DNA of 64,000 nt from Candidatus Omnitrophota bacterium (GTDB lineage: Bacteria; Omnitrophota; Gorgyraeia; JABMRN01; RBG-13-46-9): positions 583-64,582 of the forward strand of contig JADHYM010000002.1 in NCBI GenBank assembly GCA_016782445.1, given 5' to 3'. The notes under the pieces are model-generated. The model was not told where the DNA came from. It ran no database searches and saw only the letters and a list, made by a program, of their open reading frames with translations. A program made the position numbers and the translations under genes. Shown one piece after another: positions 826 through 56,260 of the stretch. Within the stretch, counting starts at the first letter, position 1, and each line of letters begins with the position of its first letter.

Positions 826-1226
826 CCCGTCGTCCCCGCCATTCTGCTTCGCCGAAATGCTTGCGCTTTCGGCTTCGCAGGAATTGGCAAGTAAACATGT
901 ATATCGTTTATATTCTTCTGAGTTTAAAAGAGCCCAGCAAATATTACATCGGCGTAACACAAGATTTAGAAAAACGTTTCAAAGAACATAATAATGCCAA
1001 AAGTGGATATGCGAATAGGCACATACCTTGGCAGATAGAAACATTTATTACTTTTAAGAATAAGCAATTAGCGCAAAGATTTGAGAAATATTTAAAACAA
1101 GGATCGGGCAATGCTTTTCTTAAAAAGCGGTTAATTTGATAGTTAGGCGAAGCAGAATGGCGGCTTGTCGGTCCTGCGAAGCTGAACGCGAAAGCATTCA
1201 GCGTAGCAGACCCGTCGTCCCCGCCA
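826..1226 (+). mobile_element. Inverted-repeat element carrying a GIY-YIG gene (element body 842-1210), bounded by identical 16-bp direct repeats
   Basis: Direct repeats cccgtcgtccccgcca lie at 826-841 and 1211-1226. The left arm (842-885) reads ttctgcttcgcc-hairpin-ggcttcgcaggaatt. The right arm (1170-1210) reads ggtcctgcgaagc-hairpin-gcgtagcaga. An exact reverse complement of the left terminus (ggcgaagcagaatgg) sits at 1146-1160. The same arms occur without cargo next to tRNAs at 6789, 7023 and 54875. Confidence 0.7.
897..1139 (+). CDS. Small GIY-YIG (URI) domain nuclease family protein
   Basis: Starts MYIVYILLS..KYYIGVTQDLEKRFKEHN, a GIY-YIG type N-terminal motif (YIVY ... YIG). About 80 aa, typical of stand-alone UPF0213/YhbQ-like proteins. 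I prefer the ATG at 897 to the TTG at 861, which lies inside the repeat arm. Confidence 0.8.
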   Translation: MYIVYILLSLKEPSKYYIGVTQDLEKRFKEHNNAKSGYANRHIPWQIETFITFKNKQLAQRFEKYLKQGSGNAFLKKRLI

Positions 1227-2743: not shown

Positions 2744-3630
2744 GCGCCCGGGCATTTTGTCCGCTTTGTTCGTACGGGAAGGCAAAATCCGCATTTCCTT
2801 ACGAAACCATCTGGGCTGAAAAAAAATACGCATACAAAAAATGCTCTTCCTGCGGCACGACGTACATATCCCCCCTTCCTTCAGGTGAGGAGCTTGAGAA
2901 AATTTATTCTTTCGAGTCATACCACAACGTTTTCTATCATGAGCCGGCCGCAGAAAAGTACAAAAAATCCGTAAAAACACTTATGCAATATGCCGGAGAA
3001 AGAAAAACGCTTCTTGACTTTGGTTGCGGGGCCGGCTTTTTTTTAGACGAGGCGCAAAAATCCGGTTTTATCTGTTCGGGCACGGAACTTGATCACGAAA
3101 CCCGGGAAAAAGCGCGCGCACTTTGCAAAGCGGATATTTTTTCTTTTGAAGAAATGCAAGGCACCTCCCGGAAATTTGATATTATTCATATGGGAGACGT
3201 CCTCGAGCATCTCGGGGATCCTCATAAAGCCGTAGAAGGGCTTAAGGCGCTTCTTGAGCCCGGAGGTATCTTCTTCTTTGAGGGGCCCCTTCAAAATAAC
3301 CTTAGCGTTGTGTACTATTTTGCGCTGATTTTAAAAAATGTAAAAAGATTTTTTAAAATTGACAAACCCGCAAAAATTCCGCCTACTCACCTTATCCTGA
3401 CAAACAAAAATGCAATGATTGATTTCTTTTCAAAAAGACTCGGCCTTAAAATGAAGTATTTTCGAATTTACGAGACAGGCTGGCCGTATCTTTCTAAAAA
3501 GCCGGAAAAAGCCACCCCGGAGTGGTATCTTAAGGCGGTTGTGGGGTGGGCAGCCATTTTTTTAAGCCTTCTTGAGCCCGGAAATAATAAGAAACTCGGC
3601 AATCGTTTTATGGCAATATGTGCAGAATAG
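2740..3630 (+). CDS. Class I SAM-dependent methyltransferase with N-terminal Cys4 zinc-ribbon-like motif
   Basis: SAM-binding motif LLDFGCGAGFF. N-terminal CPLC...CSSCG. The GTG start overlaps the upstream stop codon. Confidence 0.75.
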   Translation: MSARAFCPLCSYGKAKSAFPYETIWAEKKYAYKKCSSCGTTYISPLPSGEELEKIYSFESYHNVFYHEPAAEKYKKSVKTLMQYAGERKTLLDFGCGAGFFLDEAQKSGFICSGTELDHETREKARALCKADIFSFEEMQGTSRKFDIIHMGDVLEHLGDPHKAVEGLKALLEPGGIFFFEGPLQNNLSVVYYFALILKNVKRFFKIDKPAKIPPTHLILTNKNAMIDFFSKRLGLKMKYFRIYETGWPYLSKKPEKATPEWYLKAVVGWAAIFLSLLEPGNNKKLGNRFMAICAE

Positions 3631-5483
3631 CCGGATTTATCGATTTTGCCTATAATCACGACTACCCAATGAGCGGAACCATTTCCGCGATGAGGGACGT
3701 TTTTGCCTATGCCGGCCCGGACGATTCAGGTGCCTATATCGACGAGAAAAACGGGCTTGCTTTTGGGCACAGAAGGCTTTCCATCATCGACCTTTCGAAG
3801 CTCGCCCACCAACCGATGTCGACGGACAATGGCAGGTTCTGGATAACCTATAACGGGGAAGTATATAACTTCGCGGAAATCAGACAGGAACTTGAGTCCT
3901 CCGGGTATAAATTTAAGTCGAATTCCGACACGGAAGTGGTCATAAAGGCATTTGACAGATGGGGGCACGATGCCGTGGGCAGGTTCCGCGGCATGTTTGC
4001 TTTCGCTATCTGGGACAGAAACACGGAAAAGCTTATTCTTTACAGGGATAGGGCAGGCGTAAAACCGCTTTACTGGTATTATAAAAACAACCTGTTCATG
4101 TTCGCCTCAGAACTCAAGTCCTTTCACAGGCACCCTAAATTCCGCAAGGAACTCGACACGAAAGGCCTTTCCCTTTACCTTAAGCACGGTTATATAACGG
4201 CCCCTTATACTATTTTTAAAGACACCTATAAATTAGAGCCGGGCTATTACCTCGAGATAGGCAAAAACCGCCGTATAAAAAAATATAGGTACTGGGAACT
4301 AAAAACACACTATACGCAAGGCGCGAAAAATAAAAACAAATGGCTTAAAATACCGGAAGATCGTATCGCGGAAGAGCTCGAAGAAATACTTAGCGATAGT
4401 TTTTCTTTAAGAATGGTTGCTGACGTTCCCGTGGGTATGTTTTTAAGCGGAGGGGTTGACTCATCCCTGGTAACTGCCCTTTTGCAGAAAAAAAGCTCAA
4501 AACCACTTAAGACATTTACCATAGGATTTCACGATGAAAGGTATAACGAAGCCGAGTGGGCGAAAAAAGTGGCGCGCCATATACGCACGGACCACACTGA
4601 GCTTTATTGCACGCCTAAAGAAGCCCTTGACGTTATTCCGAGCCTTCCCGATATGTTTGATGAGCCGTTCGGCGATTCCTCGGCTATACCTACGTATCTC
4701 GTGTCGAAACTCGCCAAACGCGATGTAAAGGTGAGCCTATCGGCTGATGGTGGAGATGAGCTTTTCTCGGGCTACGCGCGGTACAGGCTTTTGCCCGCGG
4801 TGCGCAAAGCTACGAAAAATATGCCTCCTCTTGTGCGAAAATGCTTGAGTTTGGCGCTTTCTGCCGTAAGCCCTTCTGCGGCGCGAGCCATTTATGAAAA
4901 AGCCGTAAGGCATATTCCGAAGGAAAAGCGCCTTGCGAATTTCGAGGAAAAATACACTAAGTTTGTAACGATCCTGAAGTCCGATAGTTTATGGCCTGAA
5001 TACGGATCTTGCGAAGGGCTGGAGGCTTCTGCCGGCATGATGCTGGATGATTTCGAAAATTATTTGCCAGGTGATCTATTGACGAAAGTGGACCGCGCCA
5101 CCATGTCGGTCGCGCTTGAAGGCAGGGATCCGTTTCTCGATCAACGGATTACGGAATACGCAGCCGCTCTTCCGATGGCGCTAAAGTATAAAAACGGACA
5201 AAGTAAATATATCTTGAGAAAAATTCTTTATAAATACGTTCCGCGGGAATTAATAGAACGACCTAAGCAGGGGTTTGCCATACCCGTTCACGACTGGTTT
5301 AAGAAAGAGCTAAAAGACCTTTTTTCATTTTACATGGACAACGAAAAGATAAAAAAAGACGGGATTCTGGACGCCCATTATGTCCAAAAACTTCTCGCGC
5401 TTTTTTTGCGGGACAGGCCCGTGAACCGGAATAAACTGTGGTATATTTTTTTATTTCAGATGTGGAAAGAAAAATGGCTGTAA
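3618..5483 (+). CDS. asnB: Asparagine synthase (glutamine-hydrolysing)
   Basis: N-terminal MC(R)IAGF with the nucleophile Cys2. The SGGVDSS PP-loop is present. The 621-aa length is typical of AsnB. Confidence 0.9.
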   Translation: MCRIAGFIDFAYNHDYPMSGTISAMRDVFAYAGPDDSGAYIDEKNGLAFGHRRLSIIDLSKLAHQPMSTDNGRFWITYNGEVYNFAEIRQELESSGYKFKSNSDTEVVIKAFDRWGHDAVGRFRGMFAFAIWDRNTEKLILYRDRAGVKPLYWYYKNNLFMFASELKSFHRHPKFRKELDTKGLSLYLKHGYITAPYTIFKDTYKLEPGYYLEIGKNRRIKKYRYWELKTHYTQGAKNKNKWLKIPEDRIAEELEEILSDSFSLRMVADVPVGMFLSGGVDSSLVTALLQKKSSKPLKTFTIGFHDERYNEAEWAKKVARHIRTDHTELYCTPKEALDVIPSLPDMFDEPFGDSSAIPTYLVSKLAKRDVKVSLSADGGDELFSGYARYRLLPAVRKATKNMPPLVRKCLSLALSAVSPSAARAIYEKAVRHIPKEKRLANFEEKYTKFVTILKSDSLWPEYGSCEGLEASAGMMLDDFENYLPGDLLTKVDRATMSVALEGRDPFLDQRITEYAAALPMALKYKNGQSKYILRKILYKYVPRELIERPKQGFAIPVHDWFKKELKDLFSFYMDNEKIKKDGILDAHYVQKLLALFLRDRPVNRNKLWYIFLFQMWKEKWL

Positions 5484-6712: not shown

Positions 6713-6788
6713 GCCGAGGTAGCTCAGTTAGTAGAGCGCGGGCCTGAAAAGCCCGGCGTCCCCAGTGCAAGTCTGGGCCTCGGCACCA
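6713..6788 (+). tRNA. tRNA-Phe (anticodon GAA) with encoded CCA and atypical positions 18/55
   Basis: Hand-folded cloverleaf: acceptor gccgagg/cctcggc, anticodon loop ctGAAaa, 76 nt including CCA. The D-loop reads agttAgta (A18) and the T-loop reads tGcaagt (G55), instead of the canonical G18 and U55. Confidence 0.85.
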
Positions 6789-6893
6789 TTCTGCTTCGCC
6801 ATGATGCTTTCGCTCATGGCTTCGCAGGAATTCTCGTCAAACAGGATGTTGTTCCTCCGAAGCCGCACGCGAAAGCAATGCGGCGAAGAAGAA
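6789..6893. repeat. Cargo-less inverted-repeat element joined directly to the CCA of tRNA-Phe
   Basis: The left arm ttctgcttcgccATGAtgctttcgcTCATggcttcgcaggaattc and right arm gttcctccgaagccgcacgcgaaagcaatgcggcgaagaagaa are near reverse complements separated by about 17 bp. cca occurs on both flanks. Confidence 0.8.
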
Positions 6894-6903
6894 CCATTTT
6901 TAA

Positions 6904-6935
6904 TTAGCCGGTTAGCCGGTTTGCCGGTTAACCGG
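6904..6935. repeat. Four tandem copies of an 8-bp unit (ttagccgg, ttagccgg, tttgccgg, ttaaccgg)
   Basis: Read directly between the two tRNA genes. Each unit contains the CCGG palindrome. Confidence 0.8.
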
Positions 6936-6946
6936 TCGCTGTTTAC

Positions 6947-7022
6947 GCTGGCGTAGCTCAGTTGGTAGAGCAGCGGTTTCGTAAACCGCAGGTCACTGGT
7001 TCGAATCCAGTCGCCAGCTCCA
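6947..7022 (+). tRNA. tRNA-Thr (anticodon CGU) with encoded CCA
   Basis: Acceptor gctggcg/cgccagc, canonical D-loop agttggta, anticodon loop ttCGTaa, T-arm actgg-ttcgaat-ccagt. Confidence 0.9.
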
Positions 7023-7067
7023 TTCTGCTTCGCCATGATGCTTTCGCTCATGGCTTCGCAGGAATTC
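7023..7067. repeat. Solo left arm of the tRNA-linked element, joined to the CCA of tRNA-Thr
   Basis: 45 bp identical to 6789-6833 (ttctgcttcgccatgatgctttcgctcatggcttcgcaggaattc). I see no right arm downstream. Confidence 0.85.
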
Positions 7068-7071
7068 ATAA

Positions 7072-7106
7072 TAGCTTCGTAGAAAATTTCAATTCCTACG
7101 GAGCTA
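7072..7106 (+). terminator. Stem-loop after the tRNA pair
   Basis: tagcttcgtag / ctacggagcta forms an 11-bp stem with one G-U position and a 13-nt loop. Confidence 0.4.
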
Positions 7107-7132
7107 AATATGTAAATATTTAGCGTAGTAGA

Positions 7133-8374
7133 ATGAAAGAATATAAGAAACTACTCAAGAACAGGGAGTTTGTTCTTTACTCGATAGGCCAGGCTTTTTC
7201 GCAGTTCGGCGACAGGCTTGTTCAGATCGTTCTTATAGGCTACGTGTATAAACGCTGGCCCGGATCGACCTTCCAACTCGCCAAGCTTTTTTCTATCACA
7301 GTGCTGCCATCGTTTATTTTAAGCCCCATAGCCGGAGTCTTCGTGGACCGCTGGGACAGAAAAAAAGTAATGCTAATAAGCGATGTTCTACGCGCCGTGC
7401 TAGTTCTTCTGGTGCCTATTTTTATTCTGAGCACCGAAAGCATTCTCCCTCTTTACGCAGCGCTTTTTTTGATATTTTCCGCTGCCTGTTTCTTTTTGCC
7501 TGCCAAATTCGCGATCATACCCAGGCTTGTGCCGAAAGAGGATATCCTTGTGGCAAACTCCGCCAGCTCCATTGTATGGGTGATTTCCGGCATTGCGGGT
7601 TTTTCTCTCGGTGGAATTCTCGCGGAATGGGCAGGGCTTAAAAATAGTCTCTACGCGAACGCGGCTGTTTACGGCCTTTCCGCGACAAGCTTTCTCATTC
7701 TTTTTCATGCCTCAAAAACAAAAACCTTCGAACCCGGGCCGGTAAAAAAAGAAACTTTTTTGCGGGATTTATCAATTGGATTAAAAACTCTTATTACGGA
7801 TAGAAACGCCAGGCTCGTCGCCGGGCTTTTTTTTACGCTTGCGTCGCTTATAGGGCTTATTTATGTCGTGGGTGTCGTATTCGTTCAGGAAACGCTTAAA
7901 TCAATGACGAAATACGTAGGGCTTTTCGGTATGTTTCTTTTTATTGGTATCCTGGCGGGATCCTACGGTTACGGAAGAGTCGGCCCCAAACTTTCAAAAA
8001 CAAAAACCGTTTCAACATCACTTATCCTAATGGGCATTTCTATTTTGACTTTCTCGCTCGGCCTTGCGTTTACAGGATCGATCCGGCTTGGCGGCGCAGC
8101 GATGTTTTTTCTGGGACTTTTTATAGCGCCCGTTTATATAACTGCGAATACCGTGATCCACGAATCAATCGAACACAAACTCGGCGGCAGGATTTTCAGC
8201 TCCCTTGGCATAGTTATGAACACGGGATTTCTTATTTTCATGCTGGTTTCCTCGCGCCTTGCGGAAAACATGAACAAAATGACCATGCTTCTTTTCTGTG
8301 GATTCTGTTTTATAATCGTGGGAAGCTTGAGTTTTTTGGCAGGCGGACTGAAAAGGACTATTTCTTCTTCTTAG
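7133..8374 (+). CDS. Major facilitator superfamily transporter
   Basis: 413 aa with about 12 hydrophobic segments. A DRWDRKK motif follows TM2, which is the typical MFS loop motif. Confidence 0.8.
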   Translation: MKEYKKLLKNREFVLYSIGQAFSQFGDRLVQIVLIGYVYKRWPGSTFQLAKLFSITVLPSFILSPIAGVFVDRWDRKKVMLISDVLRAVLVLLVPIFILSTESILPLYAALFLIFSAACFFLPAKFAIIPRLVPKEDILVANSASSIVWVISGIAGFSLGGILAEWAGLKNSLYANAAVYGLSATSFLILFHASKTKTFEPGPVKKETFLRDLSIGLKTLITDRNARLVAGLFFTLASLIGLIYVVGVVFVQETLKSMTKYVGLFGMFLFIGILAGSYGYGRVGPKLSKTKTVSTSLILMGISILTFSLGLAFTGSIRLGGAAMFFLGLFIAPVYITANTVIHESIEHKLGGRIFSSLGIVMNTGFLIFMLVSSRLAENMNKMTMLLFCGFCFIIVGSLSFLAGGLKRTISSS

Positions 8375-54497: not shown

Positions 54498-54610
54498 CGT
54501 CGGCCGGGCGCGTCGCGGGAATCGGTTGCGCCGATGGGTTGCGTGGTGTAAATACACGCAATCGAACGACGACTGACGTTTCGCGCGACGCAACCGCAAC
54601 CGACAGACGA
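54498..54610 (+). repeat. GC-rich palindromic intergenic element, copy B, ending 5 nt before tRNA-Gln
   Basis: gcgtcgcgggaatcggttgcgccgatgggttgcgtggtgtaaatacacgcaatcgaacgacgactgacgtttcgcgcgacgcaaccgcaaccgac aligns with copies A and C. Confidence 0.85.
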
Positions 54611-54615
54611 TTCGG

Positions 54616-54689
54616 TGCCCGGTAGTGTAACGGTAGCACACGAGCTTTTGGAGCTCGGCGTCTAGGTTCGAATCCTAGCTGGGCAACCA
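54616..54689 (+). tRNA. tRNA-Gln (anticodon UUG) with encoded CCA
   Basis: Acceptor tgcccgg/ctgggca (U1:A72, as in E. coli tRNA-Gln), anticodon loop ttTTGga, T-arm ctagg-ttcgaat-cctag. Confidence 0.88.
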
Positions 54690-54855
54690 AATAATGAAGC
54701 ATTTCCAAAAGAAATGATTCATTATTTGCTACAGGCTTGTGATTCGAAGCGAGCGAGCGCCGACCCATAGGGAGGAAGAGGCCGTAAGTCCGAAAGGACC
54801 GGCCGACAGCGAGTGAGGGGAGCCTACGCAGGCGAGCTCTGCGAGCCGTAGTAGG

Positions 54856-54874
54856 CGAATCCTAGCTGGGCAAC
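54856..54874 (+). repeat. Duplicated 3' end of tRNA-Gln (19 bp identical to 54669-54687)
   Basis: cgaatcctagctgggcaac occurs twice, separated by 168 bp of GC-rich, hairpin-rich sequence. Confidence 0.85.
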
Positions 54875-54989
54875 TTCTGCTTCGCCATGATGCTTTCGCT
54901 CATGGCTTCGCAGGAATTCTCATTTTAGTTACATGAAGCAGAAGTTGTTCCTTCGAAGCCAAAGGCGAAAGTACTTTGGCGAAGAAGAA
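54875..54989. repeat. Cargo-less tRNA-linked inverted-repeat element joined to the duplicated tRNA-Gln 3' end
   Basis: The left arm is identical to 6789-6833. The right arm is gttccttcgaagccAAAGgcgaaagtaCTTTggcgaagaagaa. It is flanked by caac on both sides, and cca follows the right-hand copy. Confidence 0.8.
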
Positions 54990-55012
54990 CAACCATAGAG
55001 GTTTAGGAAATT

Positions 55013-56260
55013 ATGAAAAACGTAGCAGCAATAATACTGGCAGCCGGACTTGGGACAAGAATGAAGTCCTCTATCCCGAAGGTCCTGCACAAGGTTCACT
55101 CAAGGCCGATGCTTGAGCTGGTTCTAAATGCGCTTCGGAAAGCCGGAATAAAGAATAAGCTTCTTGTAATAAGCCCGGAAACACGGTCCGTGAAAAAGGC
55201 ATTCCCGTATTTAAAAGTCGCCTTACAGCCAAGGCCGCTTGGAAGCGGAGATGCCTTGCGGCATACAAAGAAATATTTTTCCCGGTTTAAAGGGGATATT
55301 ATAGTTATATGCGGCGATACGCCTCTTATAAACGCGGAGCGAATAAAATCCCTTCTGGCTAAACACAGAAAATCGCGTTCCTCTTGTACGATTTTAACCG
55401 TGGACACGGATGATCCATCCGGGTACGGGAGAATAATCAAGGATGATTCCGGAGAGGTTTTAAAAATCGTTGAAGAAAAAGATTTGCCGGATTATGAAAG
55501 AAATATAAAAGAAATTAACGTAGGGCTCTATTGCTTTAACAAAAAAGACCTGTTCGAACATCTTAAGAAAATAAAAATAAATCCAAAAAAGAAAGAATAC
55601 TACCTGACGGACATAGTAGAGCTTTTAAAAGCTTCAAAGAAAAAGGTTTCTTCGGTTTTAAGCGATAACTCAGACGAAGCCCTGGGGATAAATTCTAAAA
55701 ACGATCTTGCAAAAGCCAATGATATTATGCGAAAAAAAACAATCTCGAAATTCATGGAGCAGGGCGTTATTGTAACCGACCCGGATTCAACCTTTATAGA
55801 TACCTCGGCTAAAATAGGAAAAGATACGGTTATTCACCGGAATACCATTATTGAAAGCGGAGTTTCTATAGGCTCTTTTTGCGAAATAGGCCCGTTTGCC
55901 AGGATAAGGCCCGGAACCAGGATAGACGATAACGCCGAAATAGGTAATTTTGTAGAACTCGTAAGAACAAAAATTGGGCGCGGGACCAAGGCAAAACACA
56001 TGTCTTATCTCGGAGATGCACATATAGGTAAAGGCGTAAACGTAGGCGCCGGAACAATAACGGCAAATTTTGACGGAAAAAATAAAAATAAAACAGTTAT
56101 AGGCGATAGGGCCTTTATAGGCGTCGGGGCTATTCTCATAGCGCCTGTTAGAATAGGCAAGGGCGCAACAGTCGGAGCCGGAAGCGTGGTGACCAGAAAT
56201 AAACATGTGCCTGCCGGCAAAACCGTGGTAGGGGTACCGGCTCGGTTACTAAAAAAATGA
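55013..56260 (+). CDS. glmU: Bifunctional UDP-N-acetylglucosamine pyrophosphorylase / glucosamine-1-phosphate acetyltransferase
   Basis: AAIILAAGLGTRMKSSIPKVLHKV N-terminal motif and C-terminal left-handed beta-helix hexapeptide repeats. Confidence 0.9.
   Translation: MKNVAAIILAAGLGTRMKSSIPKVLHKVHSRPMLELVLNALRKAGIKNKLLVISPETRSVKKAFPYLKVALQPRPLGSGDALRHTKKYFSRFKGDIIVICGDTPLINAERIKSLLAKHRKSRSSCTILTVDTDDPSGYGRIIKDDSGEVLKIVEEKDLPDYERNIKEINVGLYCFNKKDLFEHLKKIKINPKKKEYYLTDIVELLKASKKKVSSVLSDNSDEALGINSKNDLAKANDIMRKKTISKFMEQGVIVTDPDSTFIDTSAKIGKDTVIHRNTIIESGVSIGSFCEIGPFARIRPGTRIDDNAEIGNFVELVRTKIGRGTKAKHMSYLGDAHIGKGVNVGAGTITANFDGKNKNKTVIGDRAFIGVGAILIAPVRIGKGATVGAGSVVTRNKHVPAGKTVVGVPARLLKK

Follow-up and report, generated by a model that had tools for sequence, protein, structure and literature searches.

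The stretch of DNA analysed here (the window) comprises 64,000 nucleotides (nt) from Candidatus Omnitrophota bacterium (GenBank assembly GCA_016782445.1, contig JADHYM010000002.1, positions 583 to 64,582 of the forward strand). Close to its left end lies a small gene for a GIY-YIG nuclease, enclosed by two hairpin-forming arms, L (left) and R (right), and bracketed by direct repeats of the 3' end of a tRNA gene. A preliminary description made from the sequence alone had taken the left arm, an open reading frame (ORF) of about 80 amino acids (aa) and the right arm as one unit at 842-1210, and all three parts are present there. The features of this cassette are listed below, where rcJ denotes the reverse complement of the junction between the tRNA end and L.

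826-841, + strand: left 16-nt direct repeat, the last 16 nt of tRNA-Asp(GTC); left boundary of the cassette and attR core of an integrase island
842-886, + strand: L hairpin, TTCTGC-TTC-GCC(stem-loop)GGC-TTC-GCAGGAA, fold -19.5 kcal/mol
897-1139 (stop included), + strand: GIY-YIG nuclease gene, 80 aa, Pfam PF01541, predicted to belong to the SLX1/UPF0213 clade
1146-1163, + strand: rcJ, GGCGAAGCAGAA + TGGCGG
1172-1210, + strand: R hairpin, an inverted, diverged copy of L with a GAA/GAA internal loop and a GCGAAAGC loop, adjoining the right direct repeat
1211-1226, + strand: right 16-nt direct repeat, an exact copy of the tRNA-Asp 3' end

The sequence CCCGTCGTCCCCGCCA occurs at 826-841 and again at 1211-1226 with 100% identity and a spacing of 385 nt, so that the perfect 16-bp direct repeats of the preliminary description are confirmed. 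The suggestion that they represent a tRNA end with CCA also proved correct. The 16-mer consists of the T-stem 3' strand, the acceptor 3' strand, a G and the CCA of tRNA-Asp(GTC), and it matches the 3' end of that gene at 16 of 16 positions in L129, where the gene is intact, and at 15 of 16 in L007 (L with three digits denotes related genome stretches or loci retrieved for comparison). Two inverted repeats run through the unit. One pairs 856-882 with 1172-1198 (27 nt, 89%) and the other 836-856 with 1143-1163 (21 nt, 95%); the latter extends 6 nt into the direct repeat and contains the extra complement of the left terminus that had been noticed at 1146-1160. The 3' strand of the L hairpin carries an AGGA 14 nt ahead of the ATG of the GIY-YIG gene. 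The R hairpin adjoins the right repeat in L007, L046, L129 and L132 as well, and the flanks downstream of the right repeat are unrelated among the window, L007 and L129. The segment 842-1210 is a discrete, self-contained cassette, and 1211-1226 is probably the original tRNA-Asp 3' end, followed by its native flank.

The 80-aa ORF matches Pfam PF01541 with an E-value of 9.5e-14 (51.9 bits against a cut-off of 22.6), and 20 relatives share residues Y5, Y17, G19, R27, H31, N32 and E63 without exception. An NCBI entry under the name Candidatus Omnitrophica is 100% identical to the protein. When PDB sequences were searched with a profile, SLX1 (2.2e-5) and the UPF0213 protein BH0048 (1.4e-4) were found. 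An AlphaFold2 model of the protein (pLDDT 89.7) was compared with solved structures by Foldseek, which gave Slx1 at 3e-4 with a TM-score of 0.75, UvrC at 0.2 and I-TevI at 0.39; among solved structures Slx1, HIGLE and UPF0213 come nearest. Judged from sequence and model, the protein is an intact GIY-YIG domain of the SLX1/UPF0213 type, a structure-specific clade, and not of the I-TevI type. The SLX1/UPF0213 nucleases (COG2827, YhbQ-like) are its best matches in both sequence and fold. Of the two affinities that the preliminary description had set side by side, homing endonucleases and YhbQ-like proteins, the second is therefore the one upheld; being SLX1/UPF0213-like and without a DNA-binding domain, the protein is not a typical homing endonuclease. 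Its family is large, with 1418 clusters at 50% identity (E<=1e-10) and 3094 clusters at 90% identity around a Xanthobacteraceae member. A phage origin was rejected, as viral contigs yielded only 2 relatives among 2.9 million. No specific NCBIfam name was found for the 80-aa protein.

A protein-alignment scan of metagenomes gave 557 relatives; the best 80 of the 557 were used and 72 had enough upstream sequence to be evaluated. Upstream of these 72 lies a tRNA gene in 39 cases, a tmRNA gene in 8 and an uncalled tRNA-like end in 3, and further cases beyond these 50 are recognisable by eye. The relatives lie 45-450 nt downstream of the tRNA and are co-oriented with the tRNA or tmRNA in all 47 called cases, with none opposite. 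The preliminary description had asked whether GIY-YIG genes in related genomes carry the arms, and they do, at the CCA ends of tRNAs. The interval of 45-300 nt between tRNA and gene holds the L/rcJ/R module, of which the Xanthobacteraceae have a GC-rich version. In this the tRNA-CCA is followed by L (TCCTGC-TTC-GCGC..GCGC-TTC-GCAGGA), a spacer, rcJ (GCGAAGCAGGA+TG, complementary to CA and the 5' half of L) and R (CCCTCC-GAA-GCC..GGC-GAA-GGAGGG), with the start codon 5-12 nt beyond R and, in the leaders of relatives, a Shine-Dalgarno sequence within the R 3' strand. RNAalifold predicted from 12 leaders a 13-bp helix between junction and rcJ, beginning at the A of CCA, together with the R hairpin. 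Compensatory changes are present in the former, where L156 has G:C in place of A:U, and L135 and L151 have C:G in place of G:C.

Two arrangements of these parts occur. In the commonest, (i), the order is tRNA-L-rcJ-R-GIY and the gene stands outside the arms. Arrangement (ii), tRNA-L-GIY-rcJ-R, is that of the window, L007, L046, L097, L129, L131 and L132. The two do not track protein phylogeny. Relatives trailing the tmRNA gene (ssrA) were seen in L134, L148, L154, L157, L164, L167, L177, L183, L187, L189 and L199, and the relative in L146 has tRNA-Ile on one side and tRNA-Ala on the other, so that its site is presumably the spacer of an rRNA operon. The common denominator of all the targets is the 'top half', acceptor and T-arm, with CCA. 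Several kinds of nuclease gene seem to gather in the tRNA arrays of these bacteria; in L008 (378-1361) an ORF of 327 aa resembling a LAGLIDADG homing endonuclease lies between tRNA-Val and the cassette-bearing tRNA-Asp. Upstream of tRNA-Thr(TGT) in L003 (5210-5640) there are three copies of the 5' half of that tRNA and two of its 3' half, with GC-rich hairpins among them, as if entry and exit at the anticodon-loop region had been repeated.

The arms themselves were also followed across genomes. Each folds into a hairpin, about 42 nt long, whose internal loop is 3x3 (TTC/TTC on one strand, GAA/GAA on the other) and whose consensus is TTCTNC-TTC-GCC(variable stem-loop)GGC-TTC-GN'AGGAA; L can also pair with its R partner to form a single long hairpin (-54 kcal/mol, z from about -6.6 to -8.8). 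A degenerate form of the pattern matched at least 117 stretches in the GTDB genomes. Among the matches listed, to which the following counts of units and pairs also refer, nearly all are from Omnitrophota. Forty-nine of 185 units start 0-3 nt past a tRNA gene, always on the same strand and at 28 anticodons; CCA stands directly ahead of 68 of the 185 and many others follow tRNA 3' fragments. Covariation was assessed in 171 distinct arm units from other genomes at positions left free by the search pattern. The N:N' position is paired in 95% of the 171 with four Watson-Crick types (51% in shuffles), the first inner-stem pair in 97% with five pair types and the unconstrained flanking pair in 99%. 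This indicates that the arm hairpin is under selection, as DNA or as RNA.

Convergent pairs of arms fall into two size classes, 36 with a gap of 2-46 nt and 4 with a gap of 274-292 nt. All 4 of the latter hold a GIY-YIG gene, and a single case of 382 nt holds a tRNA. GIY-YIG is the only cargo found between arms, and the equal frequency of unrelated cargo that would have told against the association was not observed. Loci selected by the arm motif have GIY-YIG genes beside the units at tRNA-Tyr, tRNA-Gln (twice) and tRNA-Ala. When 1096 ORFs near arm units were clustered, GIY-YIG was the only recurrent gene of a mobile type, with no recurrent transposase, integrase or RAYT among them, and a hidden transposase or RAYT partner was rejected on this basis.

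In arrangement (ii) a copy of the 3' end of the local tRNA abuts R. It is 16 nt long at tRNA-Asp (window, L007 and L129), 13 nt at tRNA-Tyr (L046, in which the tRNA gene has no CCA) and 14 nt at tRNA-Ser (L132), and in each case its start coincides with the first base of the T-stem 3' strand or is no more than 2 nt away. Behind the right repeat of L129, L132 and L007 there is a terminator-like hairpin, and the downstream sequence is unrelated between loci. Because a terminator follows and the flanks differ, the downstream copy looks like the original end, and the working tRNA is completed by the upstream copy, which looks as if it arrived with the cassette. In arrangement (i) a 20-nt repeat lies behind the gene at the tRNA-Leu of L135. 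The cargo-less pairs have short repeats (ACCA, GCCA, CAAC(CA) or CGCTC(CA)) or none.

The rcJ element likewise reflects the site in which it is found. Its tRNA-derived part fits the local tRNA, being TGGCGG at tRNA-Asp, CTGCCC and GTTG at tRNA-Gln and GTG at genes ending in CAC, with G..C at a non-tRNA site. This match to each local tRNA suggests templated copying rather than point mutation. Fold-back priming and cruciform resolution were considered as sources of rcJ, and each predicts a different sequence or order from that observed. A T-box-like pairing of rcJ with NCCA was rejected, as most relatives match only the CA of CCA. In L129 (2741-2765) and L132 (2742-2756) the GIY-YIG reading frame enters an rcJ-like GGCGAAGTAG, inside which lies its stop codon TAG; in L129 the rcJ proper, with a TGGC extension, is found further downstream. 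The position of this stop suggests that the end of the gene and the inverted junction copy are physically coupled.

The window contains 6 occurrences of a loose form of the arm pattern where 0.04 would be expected by chance. Apart from those of the cassette, arms are found in modules without cargo behind three other tRNA genes (all tRNAs called by ARAGORN and Rfam).

6713-6788, + strand: tRNA-Phe(GAA), with a cargo-less module directly 3'
6789-6893, + strand: cargo-less module; L2 6789-6833, a degenerate junction complement and R2 6852-6893 (gap about 18 nt), then CCA at 6894-6896
6947-7022, + strand: tRNA-Thr(CGT), with a cargo-less module directly 3'
7023-7133, + strand: cargo-less module; L3 7023-7067 and R3 7093-7133
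54616-54689, + strand: tRNA-Gln(TTG)
54690-54855, + strand: GC-rich insert without ORF, between tRNA-Gln and its displaced 3' end; a separate type of element
54856-54874, + strand: displaced tRNA-Gln 3' end, 19 nt, from the T-loop through the first C of CCA
54875-54995, + strand: cargo-less module; L4 54875-54919, rcJ4 (GAAGCAGAA+GTTG) 54935-54947, R4 54948-54989 and CAACCA 54990-54995

The copies at 6789 and 54875 had been recognised before as carrying the same arms, and they do belong to the same arm family, with gaps of about 18 and 28 nt; the third, at tRNA-Thr, is absent from the preliminary description. The module at 6789-6893 folds into a single long hairpin (-54.2 kcal/mol, z -6.6) and is flanked by an ACCA repeat, and the CAACCA behind R4 equals the last 6 nt of tRNA-Gln. 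L2, L3 and L4 are identical over 45 nt, while R2, R3 and R4 all differ and so do the spacers, and the spacer of the tRNA-Thr module keeps an older L 3' half (gcttcgtagaa) that matches R3. As the left hairpin alone is common to them, the three are not recent copies of a whole element. The identity of the left hairpins, the differences between their partners and the older half in the tRNA-Thr spacer instead suggest that only the tRNA-proximal hairpin is being overwritten. The proposal that the cassette is an autonomous element and the cargo-less copies its miniatures therefore stands in part: the arms are shared and GIY-YIG is their sole cargo, but the short copies share only the left hairpin.

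The orthologous tRNA-Gln/glmU locus was found in three states, cargo-less in the window, L-GIY-rcJ-R in L097 and L-rcJ-R..GIY-L in L104. This alternation of cargo-less and GIY-YIG-bearing states suggests gain or loss of the ORF in place. In L104 the same 46-nt L hairpin follows both the tRNA-Gln (3619-3664) and the stop codon of the GIY-YIG gene (4119-4164), which gives a 500-nt direct repeat unit, L-rcJ-R-GIY-L, and recalls a 385-bp tandem in L002 (below) and the tandem modules seen elsewhere. Modules are stacked in L007 (a pair, GCCA, then the GIY element) and duplicated in tandem in L011, L133, L160 and L189.

The insert of about 166 nt at 54690-54855 belongs to a sequence family (..TTCGAAGCGAGCGAGCGCCGA.. 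to ..GCCGWAGTAGGC) that is likewise placed in L084, L072, L049, L064 and L037, where it lies at tRNA-Arg, Gly, Met and Leu. Its geometry is like that of an integrase att site, yet the element is tiny and conserved; the insert has no Rfam match. Between the tRNA-Phe module and tRNA-Thr (6903-6937) there is a run of near-repeats, ttagccgg ttagccgg tttgccgg ttaaccgg.

It is proposed that the cassette is a selfish, homing-endonuclease-like member of a widespread family that resides directly 3' of tRNA and tmRNA genes, a reading in which our confidence is about evenly balanced. Read-through from the tRNA or tmRNA promoter would transcribe the GIY-YIG gene, and the L and R hairpins, whose 3' strands hold the ribosome-binding site, would for that reason be expected to throttle its translation. 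The nuclease would cut structured or TpsiC-proximal DNA of tRNA-like genes, and repair from an occupied copy would then install the cassette, so that the tRNA 3' end brought by the element would stand upstream and the original one would remain downstream, as the direct repeat. Homology or annealing arms would be provided by this carried end and by the downstream repeat of 13-20 nt, a role that would account for conservation of the repeat while the flanks differ. Cargo-less L-rcJ-R modules would be what persists or spreads after loss of the ORF. We infer this mechanism from sequence. A bolder version would make the cassette the type of a new class of mobile element, in which a minimal SLX1-type nuclease, in place of a transposase or integrase, drives insertion of the hairpin module at the tRNA or tmRNA CCA end, duplicates the acceptor/T-arm 3' strand and leaves a templated rcJ, with the cargo-less pairs as REPIN-like derivatives; we advance this tentatively, and think it the less probable outcome.

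In its working the cassette is most like a free-standing homing endonuclease gene, with additional features that are undescribed for that class. As with such genes, it is intergenic beside a conserved target gene, and its ORF is present or absent at tRNA-Gln/glmU; unlike theirs, its product has no fused DNA-binding domain. The SegB protein of phage T4 is more than twice as long as the 80-aa protein and has a DNA-binding region. It is a GIY-YIG homing endonuclease encoded in a tRNA cluster, and its 27-bp site includes the tRNA TpsiC stem-loop motif (PMC2330249), which demonstrates that a GIY-YIG enzyme can use this motif of a tRNA gene as its site. The likeness extends to the GIY-YIG domain, a gene among tRNA genes, a TpsiC site that fits the start of the cassette repeats at the T-stem 3' strand, and selfish inheritance together with flanks. 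However, SegB is a phage protein whereas the cassette family is chromosomal and almost absent from viral contigs, and the cassette protein is a catalytic domain only, of 80 aa and SLX1/UPF0213-like, with I-TevI-type folds at an E-value of 0.39. Furthermore, the Seg genes have no described L/rcJ/R module, tRNA 3'-end duplication or ORF-less hairpin remnants, all of which are found in the cassette family.

Other known systems share part of this anatomy. The repetitive extragenic palindromic (REP) sequences, with REPINs and RAYTs, resemble the modules in being imperfect palindromes of about 40 nt that are numerous, extragenic and arranged in inverted pairs, with one associated gene flanked by a pair. 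They differ in that the cassette has a GIY-YIG nuclease and not an HUH Y1 transposase, has no GTAG head (the units start TTCT) and is anchored at the tRNA CCA. The theta ribozymes, which resemble that of hepatitis delta virus (HDV), are structured sequences starting exactly at the tRNA 3' end (PMC10879173), although the cassette module consists of two simple hairpins and is linked to a nuclease gene. An HDV-like or theta ribozyme reading of the L module was dropped, as the order of helices does not fit and no model matched. Searches of Rfam 15 returned tRNAs only, both for the whole window at the gathering threshold and, at an E-value threshold, for 780-1300, 54560-55020 and 12 related loci. 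Small multi-copy bacterial genes of the UPF0213 type and of unknown role have been noted earlier, for example in Caulobacter (PMC1839093). In the literature no description was found of GIY-YIG cassettes trailing tRNA or tmRNA genes or of this hairpin module, and no report tying the SLX1/UPF0213 clade to tRNA or tmRNA 3' ends, palindromic leaders or target duplications.

Several points weigh against the homing-like reading. Nuclease activity, cleavage site and mobility are deduced from anatomy and distribution, and all the sequences compared are metagenome assemblies. The catalytic domain covers the protein from end to end, and an 80-aa domain with no DNA-binding domain leaves site recognition unexplained by homing. 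Nor does a homing model give a reason why an occupied tRNA, still intact, should escape being cut again. Most members of the family have no detectable direct repeat, and where flanking repeats occur their lengths vary (2-6, 13, 14, 16 or 20 nt, against 0 elsewhere) so widely that no single staggered-cut model fits. The rcJ element and the homogenisation of the left hairpin alone have no place in standard homing. Finally, the 16-nt repeat of the window is also the att core of the family of integrases to which its neighbour belongs, a possibility that the preliminary description did not raise.

This neighbour is the right end of an integrase island:

12-764, + strand: tyrosine integrase, C-terminal 250 aa of 371 aa (P0288), Pfam Phage_integrase 1.3e-22; right end of the island

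The ORF ends at 764, that is 61-62 nt ahead of the left direct repeat, in agreement with the 62 bp reported before. The full integrase P0288 lies in a xis-int module, with an excisionase-like gene (HTH_17) upstream in L209. In L212, L217 and L218 related integrases are followed by the same tRNA-Asp block of 14-17 nt, with the same T-stem start and with neither arms nor GIY-YIG, which suggests that this family of integrases targets tRNA-Asp with that core. Taking 826-841 as the attR core, the island would have integrated upstream of a tRNA-Asp-L-GIY-R-repeat locus that already existed, a state represented by L129, L007 and L222, the last an island-free allele. A later island in the same tRNA-Asp would thus have displaced the tRNA past the edge of the window and left the 16-nt core at 826-841. 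L220, from another assembly of the same population, has the same arrangement as the window, and in L222 the 16-mer is preceded by AAT instead of TAT, as expected of an island-free tRNA-Asp allele. The island is polymorphic, with a coverage in sample ERZ24794679 of 2.45x for L210 (integrase) against 16.8x for L002 (GIY-YIG). An empty tRNA-Asp allele was sought in the same population by look-ups of the downstream protein, which gave only occupied alleles (single-copy, tandem and island-free).

These findings bear on the best surviving of the alternative explanations, in which the integrase made a mini-island resembling a cis-mobilisable element (CIME). The 16-nt repeats would be att cores, the 369 bp between them a passenger and the R-core-L junction attP, with GIY-YIG uninvolved in the movement. 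As in tRNA islands and CIMEs there are tRNA 3'-end direct repeats and an integrase island in tandem at the same tRNA, and the att block, the excisionase-like gene and the polymorphism of the island all favour this account. Two sister assemblies may add to it: L002 holds a perfect tandem of the 385-bp unit (385/385 identity) and L001 starts with R1, core and L1. As an R1-core-L1 junction fits a circle or re-integration, mobilisation of the window copy by the integrase is a real possibility, and this junction, too, tells against homing in that it could be integrase-made, or else an effect of assembly. Against a CIME, however, L129 and L007 have the same tRNA-L-GIY-R-repeat state, and no integrase lies in about 2.5 kb on each side of the former or in about 6 kb downstream of the latter. 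The same order of parts is found at tRNA-Tyr and tRNA-Ser, which would need other integrases, and in L132 there is none within several kb. The right end of the island itself has no R-like arm, and L abuts CCA at 28 anticodons and tmRNA, beyond the reach of any single integrase. In the flanks retrieved for other cassette loci no integrase homologue was found save a distant match in L118 (26% identity). In addition, the cassette is only 369 bp and has no recombinase, and its family is found at dozens of tRNA species without integrases. An origin as a CIME appears rather improbable. An integron cassette with attC was rejected, since Xer/phage-type models beat the integron model (all well under curated cut-offs) and no R-box motifs were present.

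A DNA transposon, with GIY-YIG as a transposase acting on L and R as terminal inverted repeats and the cargo-less pairs moved in trans in the manner of REPIN/RAYT, appears unlikely. The arms are inverted, conserved, structured and common to long and short copies, GIY-YIG is the only cargo found between them, and cargo-less pairs outnumber GIY-YIG copies by about 9:1 (the 36 and 4 convergent pairs above). Short flanking repeats (ACCA, GCCA, CAAC) accompany several pairs, and near-identical units are found at several sites inside single genomes. However, the flanking repeats are variable or absent, with no target-site duplication of fixed length, the gene is outside the arms in most of the family, the arrangement is independent of protein phylogeny, and the three short copies of the window have L in common but differ in R and in the spacer. 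To our knowledge no GIY-YIG enzyme carries out strand transfer. The idea of the arms as classical cut-and-paste terminal inverted repeats was therefore given up, given duplications of about 3-20 nt and a gene commonly outside them.

A domesticated host function, in which the hairpins are RNA signals (for tRNA 3' processing, termination or translation) and the nuclease a repair factor for heavily transcribed tRNA genes (acting, for example, on R-loops or branched DNA), would suit the strict co-orientation in all 47 called cases, the ribosome-binding site in the R 3' strand 5-12 nt ahead of the start codon, the compensated junction:rcJ helix from the A of CCA, the processing of branched DNA by SLX1-type enzymes (PDB entries), the existence of tRNA-adjacent processing RNAs such as theta ribozymes (PMC10879173) and the near absence from viral contigs, but is very improbable against a patchy distribution over at least 28 tRNA species and tmRNA with differing states at orthologous loci, target and tandem duplications, many ORF-less remnants, a tRNA-Met in the window with a plain terminator in place of the hairpin module, and no match to a known ribozyme or RNA family.

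Bacterial genomes commonly carry small single-domain GIY-YIG genes (COG2827/UPF0213), which are generically annotated and of unknown role, and the positional rule described here makes their function testable. The subfamily that follows the tRNA/tmRNA 3' rule amounts to 1418 clusters at 50% identity, and its variants in Xanthobacteraceae from soil number in the thousands. That the target end is copied in inverted form, specific to each tRNA, points to an unusual step of repair or synthesis. At tRNA loci the arm repeats interrupt metagenome assemblies, and they could serve to mark the turnover of such loci. The cassettes would account for an entire family of palindromic repeats in Omnitrophota and, if they are mobile, would represent nuclease-driven colonisation of tRNA-like 3' ends, sites that are known mainly as the targets of integrases.

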